Source of the DNA: an uncultured Alphaproteobacteria bacterium
Lineage (GTDB): Bacteria; Pseudomonadota; Alphaproteobacteria; RF32; CAG-239
Length of the DNA stretch: 64,000 nucleotides
Direction: 5' to 3'
NCBI GenBank assembly: GCA_910584385.1
Contig: CAJUAK010000006.1
Coordinates: 41,546 to 105,545 of the forward strand
The translations under genes and the position numbers were made by a program. Positions 1,597-35,755 of this stretch are shown one piece after another. Position 1 is the first letter of the stretch. The number at the start of each line of letters is the position of its first letter. Below the pieces are notes generated by a model, which searched no databases, had not been told where the DNA came from, and worked only from the letters and a program-made list of their open reading frames with translations.

Positions 1597-3483
1597 ATGA
1601 TTGAAAAGATTAGAAGTTTCCAAGATTCATGGATTGTTAAAGGAATTTTAGGCTTGACGGCCCTCAGTTTTATGTCTTTGTTCGGGATTACCGGCTACCT
1701 TGGCTCTGCCGGCAAGAATAAGCCTGTTATCCAGGTGGGCAGCACGGCTGTTTTTCAGGAAGAGATTTCCCGCCTCTACCAAAGAGATATGCAAATGCTC
1801 AGCCGGCTGACCGGAGAGGATGGCGAAAACAATGAAGCGTTGCGCAACAGCCTGCTTCAGGGAATCGTGCAAAAAGAGCTTTCAAAAGCGATTATAAATG
1901 AAACAGCCGATGATTATAATGTTAAGGTAGGCGATGACCTTATCCGCCAGATTATCTTTTCGCAGGCCGAATTTATCAATCCGGACGGGCGTTTTAACAT
2001 GGACAAATTCCGCAGGCTTTTGCAAACGTCCAACATGAGCGAAAAAGAATATATTGAGCTCTTGCGCCAGGATATATTAAAACAGCATTTGGTGCAGACT
2101 CCCGTTGAAGAGCTAAATACCCCGAAAACGGCTGAAAGCCTTCTTAATAAAATAGCAAACCAGCGCAAAACATTTAAATATATCCTGATTAACCCGGACA
2201 TGTTAAATGTTGACCGCAAAATATCAGACGAAGAGCTGGAACAATATTATGAAGATTTTTCAGTGCAGTTTATCGAACCTGAAAAACGCGACGTTTCTTT
2301 TTTGGTTATCTCGTCTGACAGCCTGGCAAAAAAAATTATGCCTTCTGATGCGGAAATCAAGGCTTATTATCAGGAAAATATCGACCAATTCGTTATTCCG
2401 GAACAGCGCCAAGTCCTGCAAATGGCTTTTGACGATGAGGAAACAGCCAATAAAGCTGCCGAAAGCTTAAAATCCGGCAAAGATTTTTACGCTGTTGCGA
2501 AAGAGTTTGCAGGGCAAGACAAAGCCGCCACCGAGCTGGGACTGGTTTCTAAAGACATGCTGATTGCCGACATGGCAGACGAAGTCTTTTCCGCAAAAAT
2601 TAATGAAGTTGTCGGCCCCTTCCAGTCTGACATGGGATGGCACATTATGAAGGCGGTTAAAATTGTTCCTGTCAAAGAAACAAAATTAGAAGCGGCAAAA
2701 AATAAAATCATTGATGCCTTGCGCCAAGAACAAGCCTATGAGCAGGCAATGGATGCGAGCCGCGAAATTGAAGATGAAATCGGCTCAGGAAAAGGGTTGG
2801 ATGAAATTGCTTCCGAGTATCAGGCAAAAATCTATAATGCCAAAGGCTTGAGCGAAGACGGCAATTTTGTTACGGCGCCCGGAAAATATTCCGATTTGAT
2901 TAAATCTGCTGATTTTATCGATACGGCATTCTCCTATAACCAAGGCGAAATCAGCCAGATTTTGGAAACGGAAGACGGTTTTGCCTTACTTCGGGTTGAT
3001 AACATCACAGATGCGCATAATAAAGAAATATCCGAAGTTAAAGATGAAATCGCACAAATGTGGGAAGAAAACGAAAAAAGCGCCATTATGCAAGAAATTG
3101 TCAACGATGTTTTGCATGATATGGAAAGCGGAGACAAAATTGAAGAAGTTGCCGCACGTTTCAAATTATCATTAAACAGCTCCGCCCCAATAACGCGCGA
3201 AGGCTCTTTCGCCGGCTTAAACAAAGCGCAGATTGCCGAAATTTTCCATGAAAAAGTCGGGTCTGCCAAAGTCTTGGATTTGGATGGCAAAAAAATGATT
3301 GTTACAACGACTAAAATCATAAACGATCAGAGAAAGCCGTCTAAAGAAGCCGCTGATGTTACGAAATTTAAATTTCAAAGCGACCTTTCAAGACAAGCTG
3401 CGGATACGCTTATAAAAGCCTATGGCAAAAATTATAAAACCAAGGTTAAATATAAGAATATCGGCCTATTGGAAGACGAATAG
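1597..3483 (+). CDS. PpiD/SurA-like periplasmic chaperone with a parvulin-type peptidyl-prolyl isomerase domain
   Basis: 628 aa with an N-terminal signal-anchor helix, SurA-N-like region and a parvulin motif (GPFQSDMGWHIMK). A PPIase downstream of tpiA is the usual alphaproteobacterial arrangement. Confidence 0.75.
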   Translation: MIEKIRSFQDSWIVKGILGLTALSFMSLFGITGYLGSAGKNKPVIQVGSTAVFQEEISRLYQRDMQMLSRLTGEDGENNEALRNSLLQGIVQKELSKAIINETADDYNVKVGDDLIRQIIFSQAEFINPDGRFNMDKFRRLLQTSNMSEKEYIELLRQDILKQHLVQTPVEELNTPKTAESLLNKIANQRKTFKYILINPDMLNVDRKISDEELEQYYEDFSVQFIEPEKRDVSFLVISSDSLAKKIMPSDAEIKAYYQENIDQFVIPEQRQVLQMAFDDEETANKAAESLKSGKDFYAVAKEFAGQDKAATELGLVSKDMLIADMADEVFSAKINEVVGPFQSDMGWHIMKAVKIVPVKETKLEAAKNKIIDALRQEQAYEQAMDASREIEDEIGSGKGLDEIASEYQAKIYNAKGLSEDGNFVTAPGKYSDLIKSADFIDTAFSYNQGEISQILETEDGFALLRVDNITDAHNKEISEVKDEIAQMWEENEKSAIMQEIVNDVLHDMESGDKIEEVAARFKLSLNSSAPITREGSFAGLNKAQIAEIFHEKVGSAKVLDLDGKKMIVTTTKIINDQRKPSKEAADVTKFKFQSDLSRQAADTLIKAYGKNYKTKVKYKNIGLLEDE

Positions 3484-3488
3484 CCGCA

Positions 3489-3513
3489 AGCCCCGGAACT
3501 TCGGGGCTTTTTT
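3489..3513 (+). terminator. rho-independent terminator
   Basis: AGCCCCG-GAACTT-CGGGGCT hairpin followed by TTTTTT, immediately after the stop codon at 3483. Confidence 0.7.
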
Positions 3514-3572
3514 GAGCTTATCAGACAACGCCTGAAAGAAAAATCAGGCTTTTCTGTTTTATACGGTTAAGA

Positions 3573-3601
3573 TTGACGAGCTTTCAAAAAAGTGGTATAC
3601 T
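3573..3601 (+). promoter_or_regulatory. near-consensus sigma70 promoter TTGACG-N17-TATACT
   Basis: TTGACG at 3573-3578, an exact 17-nt spacer, and TATACT at 3596-3601. It lies about 100 nt upstream of the ATG at 3700. Confidence 0.5.
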
Positions 3602-3699
3602 AGCTTTTGTTATTAACGTTTATGTTCAATTATTAATCACGAGGAATAAGGCTTGGAACCCACGCGCCTCATAAAATAAAGACGAAAGCAAAATAAATT

Positions 3700-5445
3700 A
3701 TGTTAACTTACCTCTTGTTTGCCCTCATGCTCGGCCTTCTGGCTCTCCTCTTCCCCTTCCTTATCGATAAGGAAGACAGAGAAGAAGCTTGGATCCCTGC
3801 AATTATCGTGGGGATTTGCAGCTTTCTGTTCTGGGGAGCCCTTAACTGGCTGTTGCTGCCTGTCATCTCGCCGGATACGCCGGCGATGTGGATAGAACTA
3901 GCCCTAAGCCTCTGCTTCTACGGATGCCTGTCGTCTCTTCTTGACTATTCAAAAGCAGGAAAGAAGATTATCATCGGCTTGGCGGCTGCCGGAGCACTCG
4001 GCTTGGCTTTTGTAGGCCTCTATTCCTGGGATATCTTTCACAGCAGCAAAAAGTACAATCTTTTGCAGGTGGAAGAAACACAGGACAGCATTGAAAATAC
4101 CATTTCGCCCATTCCCGTGGAAAAGATGGCCATTATCAATGAAAACGTCGCCAGAGCTCTGGTGAACCAGAAAATGAACGACCTTGGCAATCGCTGTGAA
4201 ATCGGCACCTTTACCAAGCAGAGCTTTACCGGGAAATTCACAGCTAAAGAATTCAACGGCAATGTGGTCAATATCGATTACCAAAACCAAATCGTTTATG
4301 TCGCTCCGCTTGAGCACACAAGCTTCTGGAAATGGAAAAAATATCGCCACACCGAAGGATATGCATTAGTCAATGCCAGCGATCCTTCCGAGTATTACCT
4401 CATTTGCGAGGTGAACGGAGAACCTCTCAAGCTGAAATATCTTGAAAGCGCCCACTTTGGCGATAATATTGAAAGATATGTGCGTACGCACGGCTTTCAA
4501 AACAAGCGCCTTAGCGACTTTGGCATTGAGCTTGACGAAAACGGACGCCCGTTTAACGTGATTTCCGTTTTGGAAAACCAAATCATGTGGGGAACGCCGC
4601 TGGCAACAGGTTCTGTCATTGTTGACGTCCAGACGGGAGATATTAAGGAATATGACATTGAACATACTCCAAGCTTTGTTAATCTGGTTCAACCGCGAAA
4701 CGTTGTGGAAGACCTGATTTACTACTGGGGAGAATATGTTCACGGTTATGTCGATTTCTCAGACAAGGACAGAAAACGCGCAACCCCCGGCATGGATATC
4801 GTCCATGACGGAAAAGACGGCTGCTGCTATTATGTCGGCATTCAAAGCAAGGCAAATGCTGATTCAGACGCTGTGGCAACCATCGGGTTCTTAAAAATTA
4901 ATACCATCACCGGAAAGGCTACTTTCTTTAAGCGTGAAGGCATTAACGAACCTGCTGCAAAAAAAGCCATGGCCGCAGACATTTCCGTTGCAAAAGACAT
5001 CCAGCTTGGCACTGTCGAACTGGATGACGCTGTCTTCTATAACATTGAAGGCATCCCGACTTATTTTGCAACATTTATAAGCACAAAGGACAATATGCCT
5101 AAATATTACGGCTTTTGCTCCGCTTATAATAAAGAAGTCGTCGGGGTTGGCACTTCTCTGCAGAGTGCAAAGGCAGCCTATTTGAAATCCCGCGCCGAAT
5201 ATGAACAGCGCCAAGGATTGAAATCATCGGCTGCAGACGTTTCTTCCGTTACCCGCAAGGTTACGGTTGCAGAGAAAGTACAGGAAGGAAACTGCTATTA
5301 TTTCCGTTTCAATGAAACCGGAGATACGGTATTTTATGCATTTTCCGAATTGCTTCCCGAGGTACGTTGGCATAATGAAAAACCGACGATTACCTACCGC
5401 AAAAGCAATGAAACTTCTATTGCTTTGAGCGATTATTCGAAGTAA
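3700..5445 (+). CDS. hypothetical polytopic membrane protein: four N-terminal TM helices plus a ~450-aa soluble domain
   Basis: 581-aa ORF with coding-like composition. I recognise no family motif. It has its own promoter and terminator. Confidence 0.6.
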   Translation: MLTYLLFALMLGLLALLFPFLIDKEDREEAWIPAIIVGICSFLFWGALNWLLLPVISPDTPAMWIELALSLCFYGCLSSLLDYSKAGKKIIIGLAAAGALGLAFVGLYSWDIFHSSKKYNLLQVEETQDSIENTISPIPVEKMAIINENVARALVNQKMNDLGNRCEIGTFTKQSFTGKFTAKEFNGNVVNIDYQNQIVYVAPLEHTSFWKWKKYRHTEGYALVNASDPSEYYLICEVNGEPLKLKYLESAHFGDNIERYVRTHGFQNKRLSDFGIELDENGRPFNVISVLENQIMWGTPLATGSVIVDVQTGDIKEYDIEHTPSFVNLVQPRNVVEDLIYYWGEYVHGYVDFSDKDRKRATPGMDIVHDGKDGCCYYVGIQSKANADSDAVATIGFLKINTITGKATFFKREGINEPAAKKAMAADISVAKDIQLGTVELDDAVFYNIEGIPTYFATFISTKDNMPKYYGFCSAYNKEVVGVGTSLQSAKAAYLKSRAEYEQRQGLKSSAADVSSVTRKVTVAEKVQEGNCYYFRFNETGDTVFYAFSELLPEVRWHNEKPTITYRKSNETSIALSDYSK

Positions 5446-28665: not shown

Positions 28666-29040
28666 TCAGATACCGACAGCTTCAAACTGCAGTGCGAGAA
28701 CATGGCGGATTTTGATGACTGTGCAGCGGCAAAAGCCATCCATAATACATTCGCCTTCTTTCAGGGGAAGATATTCCATCTTGTCATCATAGGCAAAATG
28801 TTTGGAATGTTCCGGCATAAATACGCCCCAGCCTCCGCGAGAAATCCGGCAGGCCCATATCGGTCCGAATGCTGCTCCGCATGGCGTGTATGCGATGTAA
28901 GGGCGGGCATCTTCATGTTCTTGGGATTGAAGTTCGGGGATCCTTGCTTCCATAAGGGAAGTAATATCATCAGCCCGCTGGATTACCACCTTTTCTTCAA
29001 CCTGCACCTTAGATTTAGGGTAAAAAATAACTTTTTCCAT
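28666..29040 (-). CDS. hypothetical small Cys/Trp-containing protein
   Basis: 124-aa ORF with its own terminator. No family recognised. Confidence 0.45.
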   Translation of the reverse strand: MEKVIFYPKSKVQVEEKVVIQRADDITSLMEARIPELQSQEHEDARPYIAYTPCGAAFGPIWACRISRGGWGVFMPEHSKHFAYDDKMEYLPLKEGECIMDGFCRCTVIKIRHVLALQFEAVGI

Positions 29041-29197: not shown

Positions 29198-30433
29198 ATG
29201 TCCAGAACATTTATTTTGCTTACTGCAGCTTCGCTGCTTCTTAATCTTCCGGCAACAGAAGCTTTGGCGCAAATGACGCCCCTGCCCCAACACAACACCA
29301 AAAGCGCGCAAGAAAGGTCAAATGCCAACAGAATCAGGCGCAACCACAGTTTTACGAATTTTGGGCAGGCTTATACGGATTTTAAAAACATGCTTAATAA
29401 GGAATACGGCATTGACTATTCCGTGGATGTGTCTTTCATGCCCCAATGGGGCGCTCCGAACGGGAAGCATAACGCAAATCAGACGATTATCTATCCTTCT
29501 TTGACCTGGACAGCCTTTAGCAATGAATATGGAACAGGGACATTAAACGCTGCTTATAATATTACGACTTACGGCAATTTTAACGGCAACCAGTTAGGCA
29601 GCAACATCAATACGGCAACCGGCATTAATGATTATGGTTCAAGCTCGAATTCTTTTGACGAATTATATTTTTCTTATCAGCTTGGCGGCAGTTGGAATTG
29701 GCTGACAATAGCAATCGGGCAGTTTCCCCTTTATAATTTTGACGGTTCCGCTTACGATGCCAACCAGCAGGAAAATTTTATCAACTACGCCCTTTCACAA
29801 AATGCTTCCTCTACTTATCCTACTGCCGGGCTCGGCACTTATGTCCAGATTACGCCGAATTCTGAATGGAGCTTTGCCATCGGTGCACAGGATGCGACGA
29901 ATATTTCCGCCAAAGGGATTAACACCGGGCATTTAGATGAAAAACACTATACGACATTCGGATATGCGGCTTATACACCGACGATTTCCGGATTAGGCGC
30001 CGGGCAATACAGCATTTTGGTTTATAATCAGCCGGCTGTTGAAGCCCAACCCGAAACGACAAACGGTTGGTCATTAAACCTCAGCCAGAATATTGGCGAA
30101 AAATGGAATATTTTTGCCCGAATTAACGGCGTGAGCGGAAATACGGCAGAAATCAGCCAGTCTTATGTTTTGGGCACCGCTTATAATAACCCCTTGGATA
30201 GGAATCCGTTAGATCAAATCGGGTTTGCCGCGGCTTATAATAAGATTGACGAAACCGCTGTCGGAGAACCTTTAAACCACAGCCATGAAACTGTCTTAGA
30301 GGCCTATTGGGCATGGGGCATTTCAAAATGGATGACAATTACGCCGGATATTCAGCTTTATCTTAACCCGGCACTCTCGCCAAAATCTGATACGGCAACA
30401 GTTATGTCGCTTCGTGCAACATTATTCTTCTAA
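29198..30433 (+). CDS. OprB-family carbohydrate-selective outer-membrane porin
   Basis: 411 aa with a signal peptide (LPATEALAQ), an N/G/Y/S/T-rich beta-barrel composition, the C-terminal family motif ITPDIQLYLNPA and a terminal Phe. Confidence 0.7.
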   Translation: MSRTFILLTAASLLLNLPATEALAQMTPLPQHNTKSAQERSNANRIRRNHSFTNFGQAYTDFKNMLNKEYGIDYSVDVSFMPQWGAPNGKHNANQTIIYPSLTWTAFSNEYGTGTLNAAYNITTYGNFNGNQLGSNINTATGINDYGSSSNSFDELYFSYQLGGSWNWLTIAIGQFPLYNFDGSAYDANQQENFINYALSQNASSTYPTAGLGTYVQITPNSEWSFAIGAQDATNISAKGINTGHLDEKHYTTFGYAAYTPTISGLGAGQYSILVYNQPAVEAQPETTNGWSLNLSQNIGEKWNIFARINGVSGNTAEISQSYVLGTAYNNPLDRNPLDQIGFAAAYNKIDETAVGEPLNHSHETVLEAYWAWGISKWMTITPDIQLYLNPALSPKSDTATVMSLRATLFF

Positions 30434-30467
30434 AAAAAATCCGGAACAAAAGTTCCGGATTTTTTTA
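30432..30467. terminator. bidirectional terminator
   Basis: TCCGGAAC-AAAA-GTTCCGGA hairpin flanked by an A8 and a T7 run. Confidence 0.7.
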
Positions 30468-31688
30468 TCCCATATCTTTGCCTGACATTTTTTTATTAAA
30501 GGCGAGCAAACTCCTCACCCGCTGTTTTGTCGGCGTATCTGCGGCTGCCATTTCGCGCCCTATATCCTTTTTTATCACATGCTCAAAAAGCTTGTCCATA
30601 TCTTCTTTTTCTTTTTTGCCTTTTTCCGCATCAACCATTGCAATGACCGGAACTTGGTTTATCTCATCAAGTTTGTTCAGCCTTTTAACAGCTTCGTTGA
30701 AAATATCCATTCCTTCGCCCATTGTGCTGTACATATAGCGGATAATATCTTCTTTGGCGATGCCTTCTGTTTCCATCTGCTGCATTTTGGCAACCAGGCG
30801 GTCCTTATACATCTCGTTTAATTTTACAATTTTTGCATGGCGTCCCCATTTTTTCAAATGGCCGTTGTAATAAGACACATTCTTTTTAACCGCAGGGTTG
30901 TTATTGGCTGAATAGAGATGGTTGCCATTTGCATCACGCCCTACATACATAATCGTGTGATATTTCATTTTGTTTCGCGGAACTAAAATAAAATCGCCGG
31001 GCTGAATGTTGTTTTCCTCGATCGCGCGTTCAAGGGCGTCGGTTCCCGGCGCTACAGATACGGTATATTTCCGAACCTCTTTATCCTCAAGAAAAGCATT
31101 TCCGTAAGTTGCGCCTTTTTTAGGAACAATTTCCGTTCCATCATCTTCTAACGCGGCAAATGCCGTAAACACCGAATAAGAACAGGTTGCAATACAGCTT
31201 GGGGCAAACTTGCTTTGGCCGGTTACTTCCTTAAATATGTGCCGGACCAAATTTGTTTTTTGCCGCGGATTTGTCTTCCAAACCTTCGCAGAACGTTCGG
31301 CTTGAACATTCATTGTATCGACAACGGCCTTGAAAACAAATGCCGTTCTGTCCCAAGCTACATCTTCGAATGTCGTCTCATTAATTGCATTGCAGATTTG
31401 CATATAGCTAAACTTAGGCGCCATAAGGTTGGCATAACTGTCTCTACAGCTCTCCAGCTTTGCCCTTAAAGGGCTGTCCTTTTGCGCCCAAGCCGGTACT
31501 GATGACGCGCTTACCAATAAAGCAGACAAGACAACTTTTTTTACGATTTTTTCTACGAGTTCCGGTTTGATTTTTTCTTTTGCCTTAGCGGCGGGACTTT
31601 TTTCCTTGGGTTTGCGTGCAATGCGTTTTTTTTCATTGTCCGTTTTTTTGTCTTCTTTATCTTCGCTGACCTTTTCCCATGTCTTCAT
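30465..31688 (-). CDS. membrane-anchored NlpC/P60-like cysteine peptidase with a Lys-rich N-terminal cytoplasmic tail
   Basis: Likely start is the ATG at 31686-88, preceded by the RBS AGAGGAGGG (the ORF extends to 31736). A K-rich ~45-aa tail is followed by one TM helix and a periplasmic domain with the Cys motif TCSYSV and the His motif GDFILVPRNKMKYHTIMYVGRDANGNH. Confidence 0.5.
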   Translation of the reverse strand: MKTWEKVSEDKEDKKTDNEKKRIARKPKEKSPAAKAKEKIKPELVEKIVKKVVLSALLVSASSVPAWAQKDSPLRAKLESCRDSYANLMAPKFSYMQICNAINETTFEDVAWDRTAFVFKAVVDTMNVQAERSAKVWKTNPRQKTNLVRHIFKEVTGQSKFAPSCIATCSYSVFTAFAALEDDGTEIVPKKGATYGNAFLEDKEVRKYTVSVAPGTDALERAIEENNIQPGDFILVPRNKMKYHTIMYVGRDANGNHLYSANNNPAVKKNVSYYNGHLKKWGRHAKIVKLNEMYKDRLVAKMQQMETEGIAKEDIIRYMYSTMGEGMDIFNEAVKRLNKLDEINQVPVIAMVDAEKGKKEKEDMDKLFEHVIKKDIGREMAAADTPTKQRVRSLLAFNKKMSGKDMG

Positions 31689-31820
31689 AAGTGCCCTCCT
31701 CTCTTTAATTTTCGTTTGTTTATAGTATAGCGCCATTTTCTGAAATTTCCACTATTTTTTTTATTTTTTTAGTCTTTACATTTTCTTTTTTTTGAGGATT
31801 AATATTCCTAGTCAAACTTA

Positions 31821-32366
31821 TTGAATAAAATGGATATTATGAAAAAAATTTTGAAAAACATTACGGCTTGCTGTTCGCTTTTTCTTTTGGCCGCTTGCCA
31901 TCCTCAGACACCACCCCAGACAGAGCCTTTGCCGCAAGTCAACCCTATTCCCTCGCATGCATTAGGAATTATCGGACAGGTTGAGCCTGTTTACTTTCTG
32001 CCAATGAAATCGCCTTTTCCTTCGCGCATTGACACCGGGGCTGAAACATCTTCGTTAGATGCCTACAACATTCGCACTTTTGAAAGAGACGGCGAAAAAT
32101 GGGTGTCTTTTGCGATGAAAAACCGCGAAACAGGCGAAGTGCACAAATTTGAAAAAGAACTCGTCCGCAAAACAACGATTAAACGTTCCCACAAAGATGA
32201 GAAAAGAAAAGTCGTTTTAATGAACATTAAAATCGGCGGTCAGACTTTGAATGCCGAGTTTACTTTGGCCAACCGCAGCGATTTTGAATATCAGGGCCTG
32301 ATTGGGCGCAATATTTTAACGGGGCGCGCCATCGTTGATACCGCCCTGACCAATACCCTCCATTAA
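31821..32366 (+). CDS. retropepsin-like aspartyl protease (RimK-associated 'ATP-dependent zinc protease' family, DUF785-like)
   Basis: 181 aa with a lipoprotein-like signal (LLAAC) and the aspartyl protease motif RIDTGAETSSLDA. Confidence 0.75.
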   Translation: MNKMDIMKKILKNITACCSLFLLAACHPQTPPQTEPLPQVNPIPSHALGIIGQVEPVYFLPMKSPFPSRIDTGAETSSLDAYNIRTFERDGEKWVSFAMKNRETGEVHKFEKELVRKTTIKRSHKDEKRKVVLMNIKIGGQTLNAEFTLANRSDFEYQGLIGRNILTGRAIVDTALTNTLH

Positions 32367-32381
32367 TCTCGGAGATTTAAC

Positions 32382-33923
32382 ATGCTAAAAAAATTGTTTT
32401 CCGTTCGCAAAATTTTGTCTTACGGCCTTATATTGTCAACCATTTATGCCTGTTACGGCATTTATGTAAAAGTCCACTACTGGGGATTTAATTTTGCGCC
32501 TAAACAAAACGCAAATGTCTGGACAATCGAGGCTCATATAAATTTTGAACCCAACGGCGAGCCTATTAAGGTGTCTCTTGCAACCCCTTCTACCGCAAAA
32601 GAATTTAAAGTTTTGGAAGAGGATGTCATCGCCCCAGACTATAAAGTAAAAAAAATCACGCAAGACGGGGTTAAGCGCTATCTTTTGACCAGCCCTGCGC
32701 AAAAAGAACTGCAAAACATCTATTACAGGGTTTTGCTTTTTGACAATATCAACGGCAAAGGCAAAGAAACGGCTCCTCAGCCCAAAGCTCCCGAAAAGCC
32801 TTATATGGACGAACAAATGGCTGCCGTTGCCCAGGAATTGCTGGAGCTCGCCAAACCTTTGGAAGGCGATTATCCGCAAAAGCTTATCCGCCTGTTTAAC
32901 CAAAATCCGCCGAATCCGACTGTTGTGAGTTTTCTGCCGCTTAAAAAAAGCCAAAAGGATACTGTTGAAGCTATTCGCAACCTGTTGGCCTTAAAAAATA
33001 TTCCAACCCGCACGGCAAGAGGAATAAAGCTGGCAGAAAGCAAAAAAGCATTTTCTCCCGACTTAATGCTGGAAGCCTATATCGACAAACGCTGGAAGCT
33101 TTATAACATCCAAACGGCGCAAATCGGGCTGCCGGAAGATTTTGTTATTTTTCAACGGGGCGGAGAATCGCTTATGGATGTTGAAGGCGGAGAAAATTCA
33201 AGCGTTCAGTTTTCAGTATTAAAATCTATCCATTCTTCTTTTAACTTAGCCGGAAAAAGGGCAGAACTTGCCAAACAAAAAAGCAGCTTTGAATATTCTA
33301 TTTATAATCTGCCGCTTAAAGAACAAAACACGATTAAATGGCTGTCTATTTTTCCGCTTGCCATTTTAGTCATCGTTTTAATGCGCAATGTTGTCGGCAT
33401 TCAAACCATGGGGACATTTACGCCGATGCTGCTTTCCATGTCTTTGGTCAAAACGGGATTTTGGCAGGGGCTGCTGTGTTTTGCCGTTATTGTCGGCCTC
33501 GGGCTTATTATCCGCACCCTGCTTTCCCGGTTAAACCTCCTGCTCGTCCCGAGGATTTCCGCCGTTGTTATCTTTGTTATCCTGATTATGGAAAGCTTAA
33601 CCGTGTTTGGATATAAGATGGATTGGGACATCGCCTTATCTGCGGTATTTTTCCCGATTATCATCATGGCGTGGATTATAGAGCGCGCTTCCATCACCTG
33701 GGAAGAGGACGGTCCGGTCAATGCCGGCAAGGAGGTTCTGTGGAGCCTTGTTGTTGCCATTATTACTTATTTTGTAATCTGCAATGAATATATCCGCCAT
33801 ATTATGTTTGCTTTTAACGAATTAAACCTTGTCATCTTGTTTATCGTTATGCTTCTTGGCACTTATACCGGTTACAGATTAACAGAGTTGCGGCGCTTCG
33901 CCCCTTTGGTCAAAGGAAAATAA
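32382..33923 (+). CDS. inactive transglutaminase-like domain fused to a C-terminal 7TM module
   Basis: 513 aa with one N-terminal TM helix, a ~300-aa extracytoplasmic domain and ~7 C-terminal TM helices. This is the architecture repeatedly linked with RimK-like ligases. Confidence 0.65.
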   Translation: MLKKLFSVRKILSYGLILSTIYACYGIYVKVHYWGFNFAPKQNANVWTIEAHINFEPNGEPIKVSLATPSTAKEFKVLEEDVIAPDYKVKKITQDGVKRYLLTSPAQKELQNIYYRVLLFDNINGKGKETAPQPKAPEKPYMDEQMAAVAQELLELAKPLEGDYPQKLIRLFNQNPPNPTVVSFLPLKKSQKDTVEAIRNLLALKNIPTRTARGIKLAESKKAFSPDLMLEAYIDKRWKLYNIQTAQIGLPEDFVIFQRGGESLMDVEGGENSSVQFSVLKSIHSSFNLAGKRAELAKQKSSFEYSIYNLPLKEQNTIKWLSIFPLAILVIVLMRNVVGIQTMGTFTPMLLSMSLVKTGFWQGLLCFAVIVGLGLIIRTLLSRLNLLLVPRISAVVIFVILIMESLTVFGYKMDWDIALSAVFFPIIIMAWIIERASITWEEDGPVNAGKEVLWSLVVAIITYFVICNEYIRHIMFAFNELNLVILFIVMLLGTYTGYRLTELRRFAPLVKGK

Positions 33924-33924
33924 C

Positions 33925-34881
33925 ATGCTGATTTCCTGGTTAAAATCATTTACCTGTCCGTCTAAGCTTCAGGAAAAAGGCATTTTAGGCATGAATGCCA
34001 GAAATTATAAAGTAATTTCCAAATGCAACAAACGCTGCCTTTACCCTCTGGTTGACAATAAAGTGCAAACAAAGCTTTTGGCTCAAAAAGCAGGCATTAA
34101 CACGCCGAATATGATTGGCGTCATTGAATATCAGTGGCAGGTAAAAGACTTTACAAAACTGGTCGAAAACAAATCAGAATTTGTTATAAAACCGGCTCAC
34201 GGAAGCGGCGGCAAAGGCGTGTTGGTTATTAAAGAACATAAAGGCGAAGATTTTATCGGGCCTTCCGGCAAGAAGTTTTCTTATAACGAAGTCTACCAGC
34301 ATATTTCCAATATTTTAAGCGGGCTTTACAGTCTGGGCGGAAAATATGATGTTGCGCTGATTGAAGATATGGTTCATTTTAGCGATGTTTTTCAAAATTT
34401 CAGCTATCAGGGCGTGCCTGATGTCCGGGTTATCGTTTATAAAGGCTATCCGGTTATGTCAATGATGCGCCTTTCAACAGCGGCTTCCGGCGGGCGGGCC
34501 AATTTGCACCAAGGCGCCGTTGGCGTGGGAATCGACATTCATACCGGCAAAGCGCTTAATGCCGTGCAATATAACCGTCCGCTTTATCATCATCCCGATA
34601 CCGGCGCAGACCTTAGCACGATTCAAGTTCCTTTTTGGCGGGAGCATCTGTTGCTGGCTACAAAAGGTTTTGAAATGACCGGACTTGGCTATATGGGTGC
34701 GGATATCGTCCTTGATAAAGAAAGAGGGCCTATGATGCTTGAACTTAATGCCCGCCCCGGCTTGGCAATTCAAATCGCAAACGGTTCGGGGTTAGTCTCA
34801 AAACTTAAGCAAGTGGATAAATGCTATCCTAAAAATTATACGGCAGAAGAACGGGTCGATTTTATTTTAAATCAACAATAA
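33925..34881 (+). CDS. alpha-L-glutamate ligase-like ATP-grasp enzyme (RimK-related)
   Basis: 318 aa with the ATP-grasp motifs FVIKPAHGSGGKGV and MLELNARPG. Separated from the upstream gene by 1 nt. Confidence 0.8.
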   Translation: MLISWLKSFTCPSKLQEKGILGMNARNYKVISKCNKRCLYPLVDNKVQTKLLAQKAGINTPNMIGVIEYQWQVKDFTKLVENKSEFVIKPAHGSGGKGVLVIKEHKGEDFIGPSGKKFSYNEVYQHISNILSGLYSLGGKYDVALIEDMVHFSDVFQNFSYQGVPDVRVIVYKGYPVMSMMRLSTAASGGRANLHQGAVGVGIDIHTGKALNAVQYNRPLYHHPDTGADLSTIQVPFWREHLLLATKGFEMTGLGYMGADIVLDKERGPMMLELNARPGLAIQIANGSGLVSKLKQVDKCYPKNYTAEERVDFILNQQ

Positions 34882-34945: not shown

Positions 34946-35560
34946 ATGGCTGAAGTCAAAAAACTTATCAAATCATCAGAAACAAAAAAAATAAAATCAA
35001 GCGATACAAAGGGCTTAAAAGGCTCTGAAACAAAAAAGCTGACCATGAGCGAAACCCGGGCAAAAAAAATTAAACACGCCTATCCGGCAAAAGATGCAGA
35101 AAATACGCTGCTGCTCAAATTAAAAGACGGCGATGTTGTTATTGAAATGTATCCGGAAGATGCGCCTAACCATGTTGCCCGAATTAAAGAACTGGTTCGC
35201 AGCGGTTTTTATAACGGGCTAAAATTTCATCGCGTTATTGACGGATTTATGGCGCAGACCGGCTGCCCTCTTGGAAACGGCACCGGCGGCAGCGGCAAAA
35301 AGCTCAAGGCAGAGTTTAACCGCCGCCCGCACAAACGCGGCACGGTTTCGATGGCGCGTGCTATGGATGTTGATTCTGCAGACAGCCAATTCTTTATTTG
35401 CTTTGCCGATTGCGATTGGCTCAACGGGCAATATACGGTTTGGGGCGAAGTTACTTCCGGCATGGAACATGTGGATGCTATCAAACGCGGCACCGGCATG
35501 AATGGTTCCGTCTCCCAGCCAGATGAAATCATCAGCCTCAGCGTTTTGGCCGATATGTAA
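34946..35560 (+). CDS. cyclophilin-type peptidyl-prolyl cis-trans isomerase with an N-terminal Lys-rich repeat extension
   Basis: 204 aa with the cyclophilin core (FHRVIDGFMAQTGCP, SMARAMDVDSADSQFFI). The N-terminal ~40 aa carry KSSETKK-like repeats. Confidence 0.85.
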   Translation: MAEVKKLIKSSETKKIKSSDTKGLKGSETKKLTMSETRAKKIKHAYPAKDAENTLLLKLKDGDVVIEMYPEDAPNHVARIKELVRSGFYNGLKFHRVIDGFMAQTGCPLGNGTGGSGKKLKAEFNRRPHKRGTVSMARAMDVDSADSQFFICFADCDWLNGQYTVWGEVTSGMEHVDAIKRGTGMNGSVSQPDEIISLSVLADM

Positions 35561-35720: not shown

Positions 35721-35755
35721 AAAAACAGCCGGATTTTTAATCCGGCTGTTTTCTT
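35721..35755. terminator. bidirectional terminator
   Basis: CAGCCGGAT-TTTTA-ATCCGGCTG hairpin flanked by A and T runs, between ppiase (+) and fabZ (-). Confidence 0.65.

Follow-up and report, generated by a model that had tools for sequence, protein, structure and literature searches.

An rloABC operon copy in an uncultured gut alphaproteobacterium and its Lys-tailed cyclophilin neighbour

What system do three tightly packed genes for a protease, a membrane protein and a ligase belong to, and what might their products do together? The question is raised by a locus in a 64-kb stretch of DNA, analysed as a whole and called the window here, from an uncultured gut alphaproteobacterium of the CAG:495 / 'Azospirillum sp. 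51_20' / Ca. Scatocola group, for which metagenome-assembled genomes are the sole source. The triad of protease, 7TM protein and ligase was reportedly first predicted from comparative genomics by Iyer et al. in 2009. The initial annotation had placed it at 31821-34881, and its coordinates and both gap lengths match the ORF listing exactly (15 nt between rloA and rloB, 1 nt between rloB and rloC, all three genes co-directional). The features of the locus are as follows.

31821..32366, + strand: rloA ORF, 181 aa from TTG; retropepsin-like aspartic peptidase, predicted lipoprotein
32382..33923, + strand: rloB ORF, 513 aa; inner-membrane protein with an inactive transglutaminase-like domain and a 7TM part
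within rloB, residues 8-34: N-terminal TM helix
within rloB, nt 32484-33281 (about residues 35-300): periplasmic inactive transglutaminase-like domain
within rloB, nt 33315-33896 (about residues 312-505): 7TM bundle
33925..34881, + strand: rloC ORF, 318 aa; cytoplasmic RimK-related ATP-grasp ligase
34946..35560, + strand: cyclophilin-type PPIase gene (PF00160, 2.9e-43)
35722..35752, + strand: strong hairpin terminator, a 14-bp stem and then a T-rich tail (terminator scan)

The triad and its conserved order

Profile searches against Pfam and NCBIfam bore out the three family assignments made at the outset (PF05618 for the protease, PF14400 and PF14402 for the membrane protein, TIGR02291 for the ligase), and the remark that such a triad is a known comparative-genomics pattern also holds, the pattern being rloABC of P. 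aeruginosa (PMC12239564). The further statement that its role is essentially uncharacterised is out of date, because rloABC has been named and partly characterised in P. aeruginosa PA14 (Lormand et al., mBio 2025, PMC12239564; rloB = PA14_41710, rloC = PA14_41730), with structures, poly-Glu cleavage and phenotypes all published. Crystal structures of RloA were solved and the protease cut poly-Glu in vitro; it requires 8 or more Glu in a row, its channel is long and basic, and mutation of the poly-Glu-coordinating residues abolishes both poly-Glu cleavage and complementation (PMC12239564). Cells that lack every RloA protease die in low-salt medium, the triple-protease mutant is fully rescued when rloB or rloC is deleted, and the hypo-osmotic, beta-lactam, biofilm and cell-shape phenotypes are likewise suppressed by deletion of either gene (PMC12239564). 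Rlo in P. aeruginosa governs low-osmolarity survival, beta-lactam tolerance, biofilm formation and cell shape. We found no literature after 2025 that names the RloC product.

The initial annotation had proposed a check of gene-neighbourhood conservation, and the triad proved to be conserved as a unit across related genomes and metagenome loci. The A-B-C order was held in the genomes of related species (n = 80) at 79/79 for rloA and 79/79 for rloC, and in the distant metagenome loci (63 loci) at 53/53 and 54/54, respectively; these counts include only loci where the contig reaches far enough, from 80 species genomes and 80 metagenome loci (160 altogether). Because the same order and orientation are found across all the related genomes and metagenome loci examined, contig permitting, the triad stands far above chance. 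Hence the window triad is orthologous to rloABC and a further member of a system already named in Pseudomonas. Searching all six-frame ORFs with phmmer gave no paralogs of RloA, RloB, RloC or the cyclophilin elsewhere in the 64-kb window. Clustering of flanking ORFs revealed no conserved fourth gene beside the distant rlo operons, no family being present in more than 6 of the 63 loci. The nearest relatives of the clade's operon outside the clade are in Lentisphaerota/Victivallales. The operon is fixed across a large uncultured gut-associated alphaproteobacterial clade, which extends the reach of Rlo well past the Gammaproteobacteria stressed hitherto.

The three proteins

RloA of the window matches PF05618 at 7.7e-30 (Pfam profile search), and its DTGAETS motif is located at residues 71-77 (nt 32031-32051), the DTGA being invariant in 80/80 clade homologs. 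In public gene calls rloA begins at the ATG at 31830 (178 aa), and a start at the ATG at 31839 would yield a textbook 20-residue lipoprotein signal, MKKILKNITACCSLFLLAAC; the true start is probably one of these two. Judged by eye and by a simple rule, MKKILKNITACCSLFLLAAC-H looks like a signal peptide that ends in a lipobox Cys (Cys26, codon 31896-31898), and an equivalent lipoprotein Cys was found in 79 of the 80 clade homologs, in keeping with the first description of a secreted or lipoprotein protease. RloA is thus predicted from its sequence to be a lipoprotein-anchored, periplasm-facing peptidase with an intact DTGA site. Its PDB matches are 2pma, 9g59 and 9g58, at E values of about 1e-12 and with the whole catalytic domain aligned. 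In the alignment with 9g58, R69, R116, R129 and R152 correspond to the poly-Glu-binding residues K46, R92, R114 and R137 of P. aeruginosa RloA, and among 78 RloA homologs R69, R129 and R152 are invariant while position 116 is K or R in 94%. The NCBIfam models RloA3, RloA2, RimB and RloA1 score 62-97 bits against the window protein, all under their own narrow cutoffs (RloA3, 96.6 bits against 210); the RloA1/2/3 models, like that for RloB, are of the 'exception' or equivalog type and were tuned to proteins closely related to those of Pseudomonas.

Once mature, the window RloA contains no Cys, so that the Pseudomonas disulfide is absent, and no Cys follows the lipoprotein Cys in 71 of the 79 clade homologs in which the latter was recognised. 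Of the distant operon-linked RloA homologs, 31/46 are also Cys-free past the DTG motif, which indicates that the disulfide marks a Pseudomonas-type subgroup and not the whole family. We considered whether the lipoprotein anchor and the lost disulfide define a new RloA variant and rejected this, because the distant operon-linked proteins already vary, with lipoprotein, Sec-type, long-extension and Cys-free forms among them.

RloB matches PF14400 (1.2e-26) and PF14402 (4.7e-84) in Pfam, and the narrow NCBIfam RloB model aligns over its full length (30-511 of 513) at 280 bits against a cutoff of 900. AF2 models gave a pLDDT of 74 for the whole protein and 84 for the 7TM part alone, and in them a single helix at the N terminus is followed by a beta-rich domain and seven helices; the membrane topology proposed earlier was correct. 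The periplasmic domain resembles the transglutaminase-like structure 3isr (E 8.7e-8), and since residues 35-300 contain no Cys, the catalytic thiol is absent. Residues that are invariant family-wide (R335, TMGTF 342-346, R378, R391, E434, R435, E441, E442, Y498, E502 and R505) all fall in the 7TM part, and conservation is lowest in the periplasmic domain. We infer that these residues are at the cytoplasmic face of the 7TM part, where RloC could dock.

RloC scores 441 bits against TIGR02291 (cutoff 314) and matches PF14397 at 3.6e-92. Across 54 diverse homologs its catalytic residues are invariant (K89, the Gly-rich loop 93-98, R182, NLHQG 193-197, D260 and E273-x-N275), the RimK-like NLHxG and E-x-N motifs being kept among them. 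The only solved relatives are Pseudomonas RimK 7qyr and 7qys (E 0.002-0.009), Ddl-family models match weakly, and neither a signal nor a TM segment is present. By its sequence, RloC is a RimK-related ATP-grasp ligase of the cytoplasm whose predicted catalytic set is complete. The shortlist of truly invariant RloB and RloC residues offers natural targets for mutagenesis and for tests of an RloB-RloC interface.

The Lys-tailed cyclophilin and other neighbours

The cyclophilin carries a Lys-rich N-terminal tail of ~57 residues (nt 34946-35116) with xETKK repeats and a TRAKKIKH motif, and it has no signal peptide. Its gene lies downstream of rloC on the same strand in 78/78 clade genomes with room for it, and in 68 of those 78 the gap is 14-138 nt, with a terminator-like hairpin inside the gap in just 2/68. 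All clade genomes with the linked gene conserve the tail, with 13-22 K+R, and flanking genes other than the cyclophilin vary among them. At distant rlo loci a Lys-tailed cyclophilin was found in 0/42. The linkage is therefore a clade-specific association outside the general Rlo system. In the window, the strong hairpin terminator follows the cyclophilin gene and precedes the convergent fabZ, and the same scan found none comparable in the 64-nt spacer between rloC and the cyclophilin gene; the latter is probably co-transcribed with rloABC, and the hairpin is likely to be the end of an rloABC-cyp transcription unit. At the other end of the unit, a consensus promoter scan found no + strand site upstream of rloA, its overall yield (13 matches against 10.3±3.4) being at chance level, and a TTTACA/TAATAT pair seen there by eye was dropped because of its 19-nt spacer.

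In this gut alphaproteobacterial clade the cyclophilin could have been acquired as a fourth working part of Rlo, its polycationic tail binding the polyanionic RloC product or RloC/RloB themselves, which we regard as decidedly unlikely. If this were true, the cyclophilin might act as a buffer or carrier for nascent poly-Glu, or it might gate RloB via its invariant prolines. The tailed protein is a cheap and testable lead to a poly-anionic product.

Both immediate neighbours had initially been described as Lys-rich and possibly linked to the ligase. For the cyclophilin the neighbour itself (PF00160, 2.9e-43, with the Lys-rich tail at its N terminus) and its linkage stood up within the clade, at 78/78 against 0/42 of the distant loci; for the upstream NlpC/P60-like gene the linkage did not, as the gene is absent in 79/80 related species. 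Its match to the Pfam model is below threshold (E 0.0048, 17 bits against a cutoff of 23), and no NCBIfam or PDB relative was found. We rejected it as a part of the module on these grounds of match and distribution; it is a species-specific insertion. The OprB porin neighbour was confirmed (PF04966, 8.9e-20).

Proposed mechanism and comparison with known systems

With a probability of roughly 0.6, the best explanation of the locus is that it is an rloABC ortholog in which RloC and RloB would make and export an acidic product that RloA cuts. The steps are transferred from the genetics and biochemistry of P. aeruginosa. RloC would spend ATP to build an acidic chain in the cytoplasm, most likely poly-alpha-glutamate; RloB, with RloC at the inner membrane, would export or display this product periplasmically, and periplasmic RloA would trim it. 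When RloA is missing, the product of RloB and RloC would build up and harm envelope homeostasis, giving the hypo-osmotic lethality and the cell-shape and beta-lactam phenotypes. Since deletion of either rloB or rloC rescues the protease-null mutant, RloB is placed with RloC in production and not in sensing, and by this analogy it would act genetically alongside RloC in making what RloA must remove.

The same enzymes could instead serve reversible tagging of envelope proteins, as an envelope counterpart of RimK/RimB, of which RimK modifies ribosomal protein S6. RloC would then poly-glutamylate a protein or lipoprotein precursor, RloB would aid its passage to the periplasm, and RloA would remove or shorten the tag. 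This would suit the homology of RloC to RimK and of RloA to RimB, RloA cuts poly-glutamylated RpsF and internal 8E/10E stretches of fusion proteins in vitro, and Lormand et al. left the option open (PMC12239564). However, no acidic-tailed periplasmic protein was found in P. aeruginosa, where the lone candidate CprS was uncleaved (PMC12239564), a folded tagged protein would require a dedicated route across the membrane, and a conserved fourth gene that might encode the substrate is absent from the 63 distant loci; we consider tagging unlikely. Alternatively, RloC might add one or more amino acids to a peptidoglycan or lipid-linked precursor, with RloB handling the intermediate and RloA trimming the peptide, which would tune peptidoglycan synthesis or cross-linking. 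P. aeruginosa mutants are misshapen, sensitive to cell-wall antibiotics and subject to hypo-osmotic lysis, which is consistent with this, as is the induction of the V. cholerae orthologs by the cell-wall-damage regulator VxrAB (PMC12239564); other ATP-grasp ligases (Ddl) work on wall precursors and match here weakly, and the operon adjoins an envelope-biogenesis cluster, fabZ-lpxD-bamA-rseP-cdsA-uppS, in the window. But FabZ and LpxD are absent downstream in all 80 related genomes, so that this neighbourhood is specific to the species. Moreover, the requirement of RloA for at least 8 consecutive Glu and its long basic channel misfit short stem peptides, and RloC is closest to RimK-type alpha-Glu ligases and not to Ddl or Mur ligases, which makes a role in the cell wall very improbable.

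The initial annotation had also suggested that the 7TM protein senses a peptide after its maturation or modification; it would then signal inward. A 7TM part with a large extracytoplasmic, ligand-binding-like domain is superficially receptor-like, but sensing is unsupported here and hardly credible: RloB has no kinase, cyclase, HAMP or other output domain in Pfam, no conserved regulator gene was found beside the triad at the 63 distant loci, and conservation in the protein is highest in the 7TM part and lowest in the periplasmic domain. In P. aeruginosa, loss of RloB phenocopies loss of RloC as a suppressor (PMC12239564).

The window findings leave the picture of what the Rlo system is unchanged, and the only unusual feature of this copy is the conserved adjoining Lys-tailed cyclophilin. 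Compared with rloABC of P. aeruginosa, the window operon has the same three families in the same A-B-C order and with tight spacing, and the predicted compartments (periplasm, inner membrane and cytoplasm) are alike. RloA keeps the DTGA site and the four basic positions that coordinate poly-Glu, the transglutaminase domain likewise lacks the catalytic Cys, and RloC is in TIGR02291. The differences are that the host is alphaproteobacterial, whereas the operon was described as widely conserved in Gammaproteobacteria (PMC12239564), that RloA is lipoprotein-anchored without the disulfide pair reported for periplasmic orthologs, that RloA and RloB score under the narrow NCBIfam cutoffs, and that the window has the appended downstream cyclophilin and no RloA paralogs within 64 kb. 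Among solved structures, those closest to the window RloA come from Legionella pneumophila (2pma) and Pseudomonas (RloA and RloA2; 9g58, 9g59) and differ from it in that identity is only moderate over the stretches aligned by HMMER and the flap is shorter, and the disulfide Cys of 9g58 is Ile in the window protein.

The RimK/RimB (± RimA) system of S6 poly-glutamylation likewise combines an ATP-grasp alpha-L-glutamate ligase and a retropepsin-like peptidase able to cut poly-Glu, and RimB shares the PF05618 fold with RloA. However, RimB is cytoplasmic without a signal peptide and Rim has no membrane component, whereas the window protease has a secretion signal. For the window ligase, TIGR00768 gives 49.5 bits (cutoff 143) and the S6-Glu ligase model NF007764 gives 18 (cutoff 331), the window protease scores 68 bits against the RimB model (cutoff 200), and deletion of rimB has no genetic interaction with rloA mutants (PMC12239564). 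HM2192 of Shewanella vesiculosa shares the RloB architecture of an inactive transglutaminase fused to a 7TM part. It is gammaproteobacterial and was studied as the B component only, with no biochemical function assigned; transposon insertions in this RloB homolog led to hypervesiculation and altered outer-membrane vesicle production, a further phenotype at the envelope (PMC12096838).

The triad and the rlo operon of Pseudomonas

The six-frame ORF list of the window gave three co-directional genes:

31821-32366, + strand: rloA, 181 aa
32382-33923, + strand: rloB, 513 aa
33925-34881, + strand: rloC, 318 aa

These coordinates, and the gaps of 15 nt (rloA-rloB) and 1 nt (rloB-rloC), agree exactly with the initial annotation, and its assignment of the products to a protease, a 7TM protein and a RimK-like ligase was borne out by profile searches (Pfam, NCBIfam) that placed all three proteins. 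On identical contigs, public annotation places the rloA start at the ATG at 31830 (178 aa), and the following ATG, at 31839, would give MKKILKNITACCSLFLLAAC, a typical lipoprotein signal. RloA matched PF05618 (7.7e-30) and, more weakly, the NCBIfam models RloA3, RloA2, RimB and RloA1; RloB matched PF14400 (1.2e-26) and PF14402 (4.7e-84), with the NCBIfam RloB model aligned over its full length (280 bits); RloC matched PF14397 (3.6e-92) and TIGR02291, the latter with 441 bits against a curated cutoff of 314.

The NCBIfam model names led us to Lormand et al. (mBio 2025, PMC12239564), who described the same triad in P. aeruginosa PA14 as the rlo operon. There, the rloA product is a retropepsin-like aspartic peptidase that is secreted, RloB joins an inactive transglutaminase domain to seven TM helices, and RloC is a cytoplasmic ATP-grasp protein with 24% identity to RimK. 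In their crystal structures two RloA orthologs form C2 dimers whose substrate channel is basic, and in vitro RloA cuts Glu runs that are 8 or more residues long. Deletion of all three RloA paralogs is lethal without salt in the medium and is fully rescued by deletion of rloB or rloC; moreover, loss of the paralogs impairs biofilm formation and the tolerance of beta-lactams and leads to defects of cell shape (PMC12239564). A Shewanella RloB homolog affects membrane-vesicle production (PMC12096838). We put the probability that the window triad is an rloABC ortholog at about 0.9. The initial annotation took the substrate and physiological role of the triad to be essentially uncharacterised, a view that the 2025 work has overtaken; a search for later papers found none that identifies the physiological substrate.

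Conservation of the unit and its neighbours

Several metagenome-assembled genomes at NCBI, GCA_948554095.1 among them, have an identical RloB protein on their contigs. Scanning one genome per species with two conserved motifs gave 304 genomes with an RloB relative, and the best 80 of these 304, at 61-72% identity, were all gut or rumen Alphaproteobacteria MAGs, with names such as 'Proteobacteria bacterium CAG:495', 'Azospirillum sp. 51_20' and Candidatus Scatocola. In tblastn searches with the window proteins, the rloA-rloB-rloC order and strand were kept in every locus of these 80 genomes; one locus without rloA and one without rloC were both interrupted by contig ends. For distant relatives we aligned representatives of 50%-identity clusters (1,641 clusters at E<=1e-3), and a scan of metagenome contigs found 549 relatives, the best 80 of which were kept and their ORFs searched with profiles. 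Seventeen of these 80 loci belonged to the same gut clade and 63 were distant, from marine, sediment, soil, freshwater and gut samples; where the contig left room, the distant loci carried RloA upstream in 53/53 cases and RloC downstream in 54/54. No extra gene family recurred beside the 63 distant triads, the most frequent being found at 6/63 loci. Because order is strict and no neighbour recurs, the triad is a self-contained, strictly conserved unit. Neither of the outcomes that the initial annotation named as refuting it, failed assignment of the three families or a triad not kept together in related genomes, was thus observed.

The nearest named RloB relatives outside the clade were from Lentisphaerota/Victivallales (entries P0122-P0125, 42-45% identity), labelled by NCBI 'UUP1 family membrane protein' or 'inactive transglutaminase family protein', and not from Gammaproteobacteria, which suggests transfer of the operon among phyla associated with the gut. 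One copy with 57% identity is labelled 'Lactobacillales bacterium', probably through a binning error.

Around the triad the following features were found:

28666-29040, - strand: 124-aa ORF, called as a gene in public annotations
29198-30433, + strand: OprB-family porin (best NCBIfam match AaxA, an arginine/agmatine porin of chlamydiae, with 302 bits against a cutoff of 600)
30465-31736, - strand: gene of 423 aa lying between oprB and rloA; its product has a single hydrophobic segment and is rich in Lys/Glu near the N-terminus
34946-35560, + strand: Lys-tailed cyclophilin gene cyp (PF00160, 2.9e-43), 64 nt downstream of rloC
35722-35752: hairpin terminator between convergent cyp and fabZ, with a perfect 14-bp stem (AAAACAGCCGGATT/AATCCGGCTGTTTT) and a 3-nt loop

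The cyp product has an N-terminal tail of 57 residues (~50-60 in the clade) made of Lys-rich KSSETKK-type/xETKK repeats followed by TRAKKIKH, without a signal peptide, and the tail is retained with 13-22 Lys+Arg in all clade genomes carrying the gene. Among the best 80 of 304 genomes, cyp lay downstream of rloC in all 78 with enough contig; the spacer was 14-138 nt in 68 of these 78, with a terminator-like hairpin in only 2/68, and the other 10 had an insertion of 0.45-2.8 kb. In the metagenome set cyp was present in 15/16 clade loci versus 0/42 distant loci, thus the rloC-cyp linkage is tight but clade-specific. In the terminator scan of the window the hairpin at 35722-35752, likely bidirectional, was the first strong terminator and lies past cyp; hence the transcription unit is probably rloA-rloB-rloC-cyp.

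The porin was upstream of rloA in 58/80 clade genomes (best 80 of 304), usually on the same strand. The 423-aa gene had been labelled NlpC/P60-like, the one observed detail that was not confirmed: the only hit was sub-threshold (E 0.0048, 17 bits) and searches of NCBIfam and PDB found no relative. Among 80 related genomes it was confined to the species of the window, with one weak match (27%) in the related genome L008, and it looks like a lineage-specific insertion. The 124-aa ORF (no Pfam or NCBIfam match) was likewise limited to the window's species in this set, and fabZ and lpxD lay downstream only in this species. Thus the proposed 'envelope block' is largely an accident of the window genome, and of the Lys-rich neighbours on both sides only the cyclophilin is meaningfully associated.

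Catalytic sites and conserved residues

The catalytic sites of RloA and RloC are intact. The DTGAETS motif occupies residues 71-77 of RloA, DTGA is invariant in 80/80 clade homologs, and 79/80 share a lipoprotein Cys at the position of C26, the lone exception having masked sequence. Four pseudo-symmetric residues bind poly-Glu in P. aeruginosa RloA, namely K46, R92, R114 and R137 (PMC12239564). We transferred them through a HMMER alignment of window RloA to chain 9g58_A (published number = chain position + 20), which is permissible because the spacing of basic residues in this chain reproduces the published numbering at +20. They correspond to R69, R116, R129 and R152, of which R69, R129 and R152 were invariant and R116 was 94% K/R among 78 homologs. 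As the mature domain contains zero Cys, it cannot form the disulfide that periplasmic orthologs from Pseudomonas have (PMC12239564). Other clades show this as well: the RloA proteins of distant operons are a mixed set, some with a Sec-type signal and two Cys, some lipoproteins and some extended at the N-terminus by a long stretch, and 31/46 had no Cys after the DTG motif.

Six distant operons (L102, L111, L115, L129, L143 and L156) encode an RloA without the catalytic Asp-Thr-Gly (substituted, for example, by ...RINTNVANS...) that retains the rest of the domain, an apparent pseudo-protease in an otherwise intact rloABC unit. In metagenome loci L112 (DTGT) and L149 (DTGR) Asp-Thr-Gly is intact, and the change is confined to the Ala after it. 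At metagenome locus L147 a single 414-aa lipoprotein ORF (3468-4709, + strand) carries two tandem RloA domains (residues 113-239 and 254-406, hmmsearch), each with DTGA; it reads as a covalently fused pseudo-dimer of the retropepsin-like protease, resembling the route by which pepsins arose.

Window RloC has neither a signal nor a TM segment. Its ATP-grasp set (K89, Gly-rich loop 93-98, R182, N193-L-H-Q-G197, D260, E273-x-N275 and R277) was invariant in 54 diverse homologs, and its NLHQG and E-x-N motifs align with RSNLHRGG and EVNSSPGL of RimK; the only solved relatives were Pseudomonas RimK chains at marginal E-values. The AF2 model of RloB (pLDDT 74; 7TM part alone 84) comprises an N-terminal helix (8-34), a beta-rich domain (~35-300), seven helices (~324-496) and a short basic C-terminal helix. 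The beta-rich domain matched 3isr, a transglutaminase-like putative cysteine protease (Foldseek, E 8.7e-8), and cannot have transglutaminase or peptidase activity because it contains no Cys whatever. Across sequences of 25-45% identity, almost all invariant residues lay in the 7TM half (R335, T342-G344-T345-F346, P348, R378, R391, P425, E434, R435, E441, E442, Y498, E502 and R505), and the periplasmic domain retained few (W47, P69 and Y115). From a helix count that starts at the basic N-terminus and follows the positive-inside rule, rather than from a prediction tool, we infer that the 7TM motifs sit on the cytoplasmic side, in its three loops and at the C-terminus.

Proposed function and comparison with known systems

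On the cytoplasmic side of RloB, RloC would make a chain that is acidic and probably consists of poly-alpha-Glu, and RloB would export or display it; the periplasmic, membrane-tethered RloA would then trim the product, and untrimmed product would upset envelope or osmotic homeostasis. In P. aeruginosa, RloB and RloC are required for the toxicity of protease loss (PMC12239564). This synthesis-export-trimming pipeline is offered tentatively, at somewhat under even odds; orthology and pipeline combined we rate as fairly probable. Reversible poly-glutamylation of an exported protein is an unlikely alternative, and modification of a cell-wall precursor a still less probable one. The idea in the initial annotation that the 7TM protein senses a peptide as a receptor fares worst and is very improbable: RloB has no output domain, no regulator gene is linked, and the P. 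aeruginosa genetics speak against it. With low probability, the polycationic cyp tail could be a functional partner of a polyanionic product.

We rejected the RimK/RimB system as the identity of the window locus because the locus scores below the model cutoffs, its protease is secreted and it includes a membrane component. With the rlo operon the locus agrees in every point of architecture, although it falls below the NCBIfam cutoffs for RloA and RloB, which are narrow, and its RloA lacks the Pseudomonas-type disulfide, none of which is family-defining. Thus the locus is a further rlo operon, a known system, distinguished by its alphaproteobacterial gut host, its lipoprotein RloA and the appended Lys-tailed cyclophilin.
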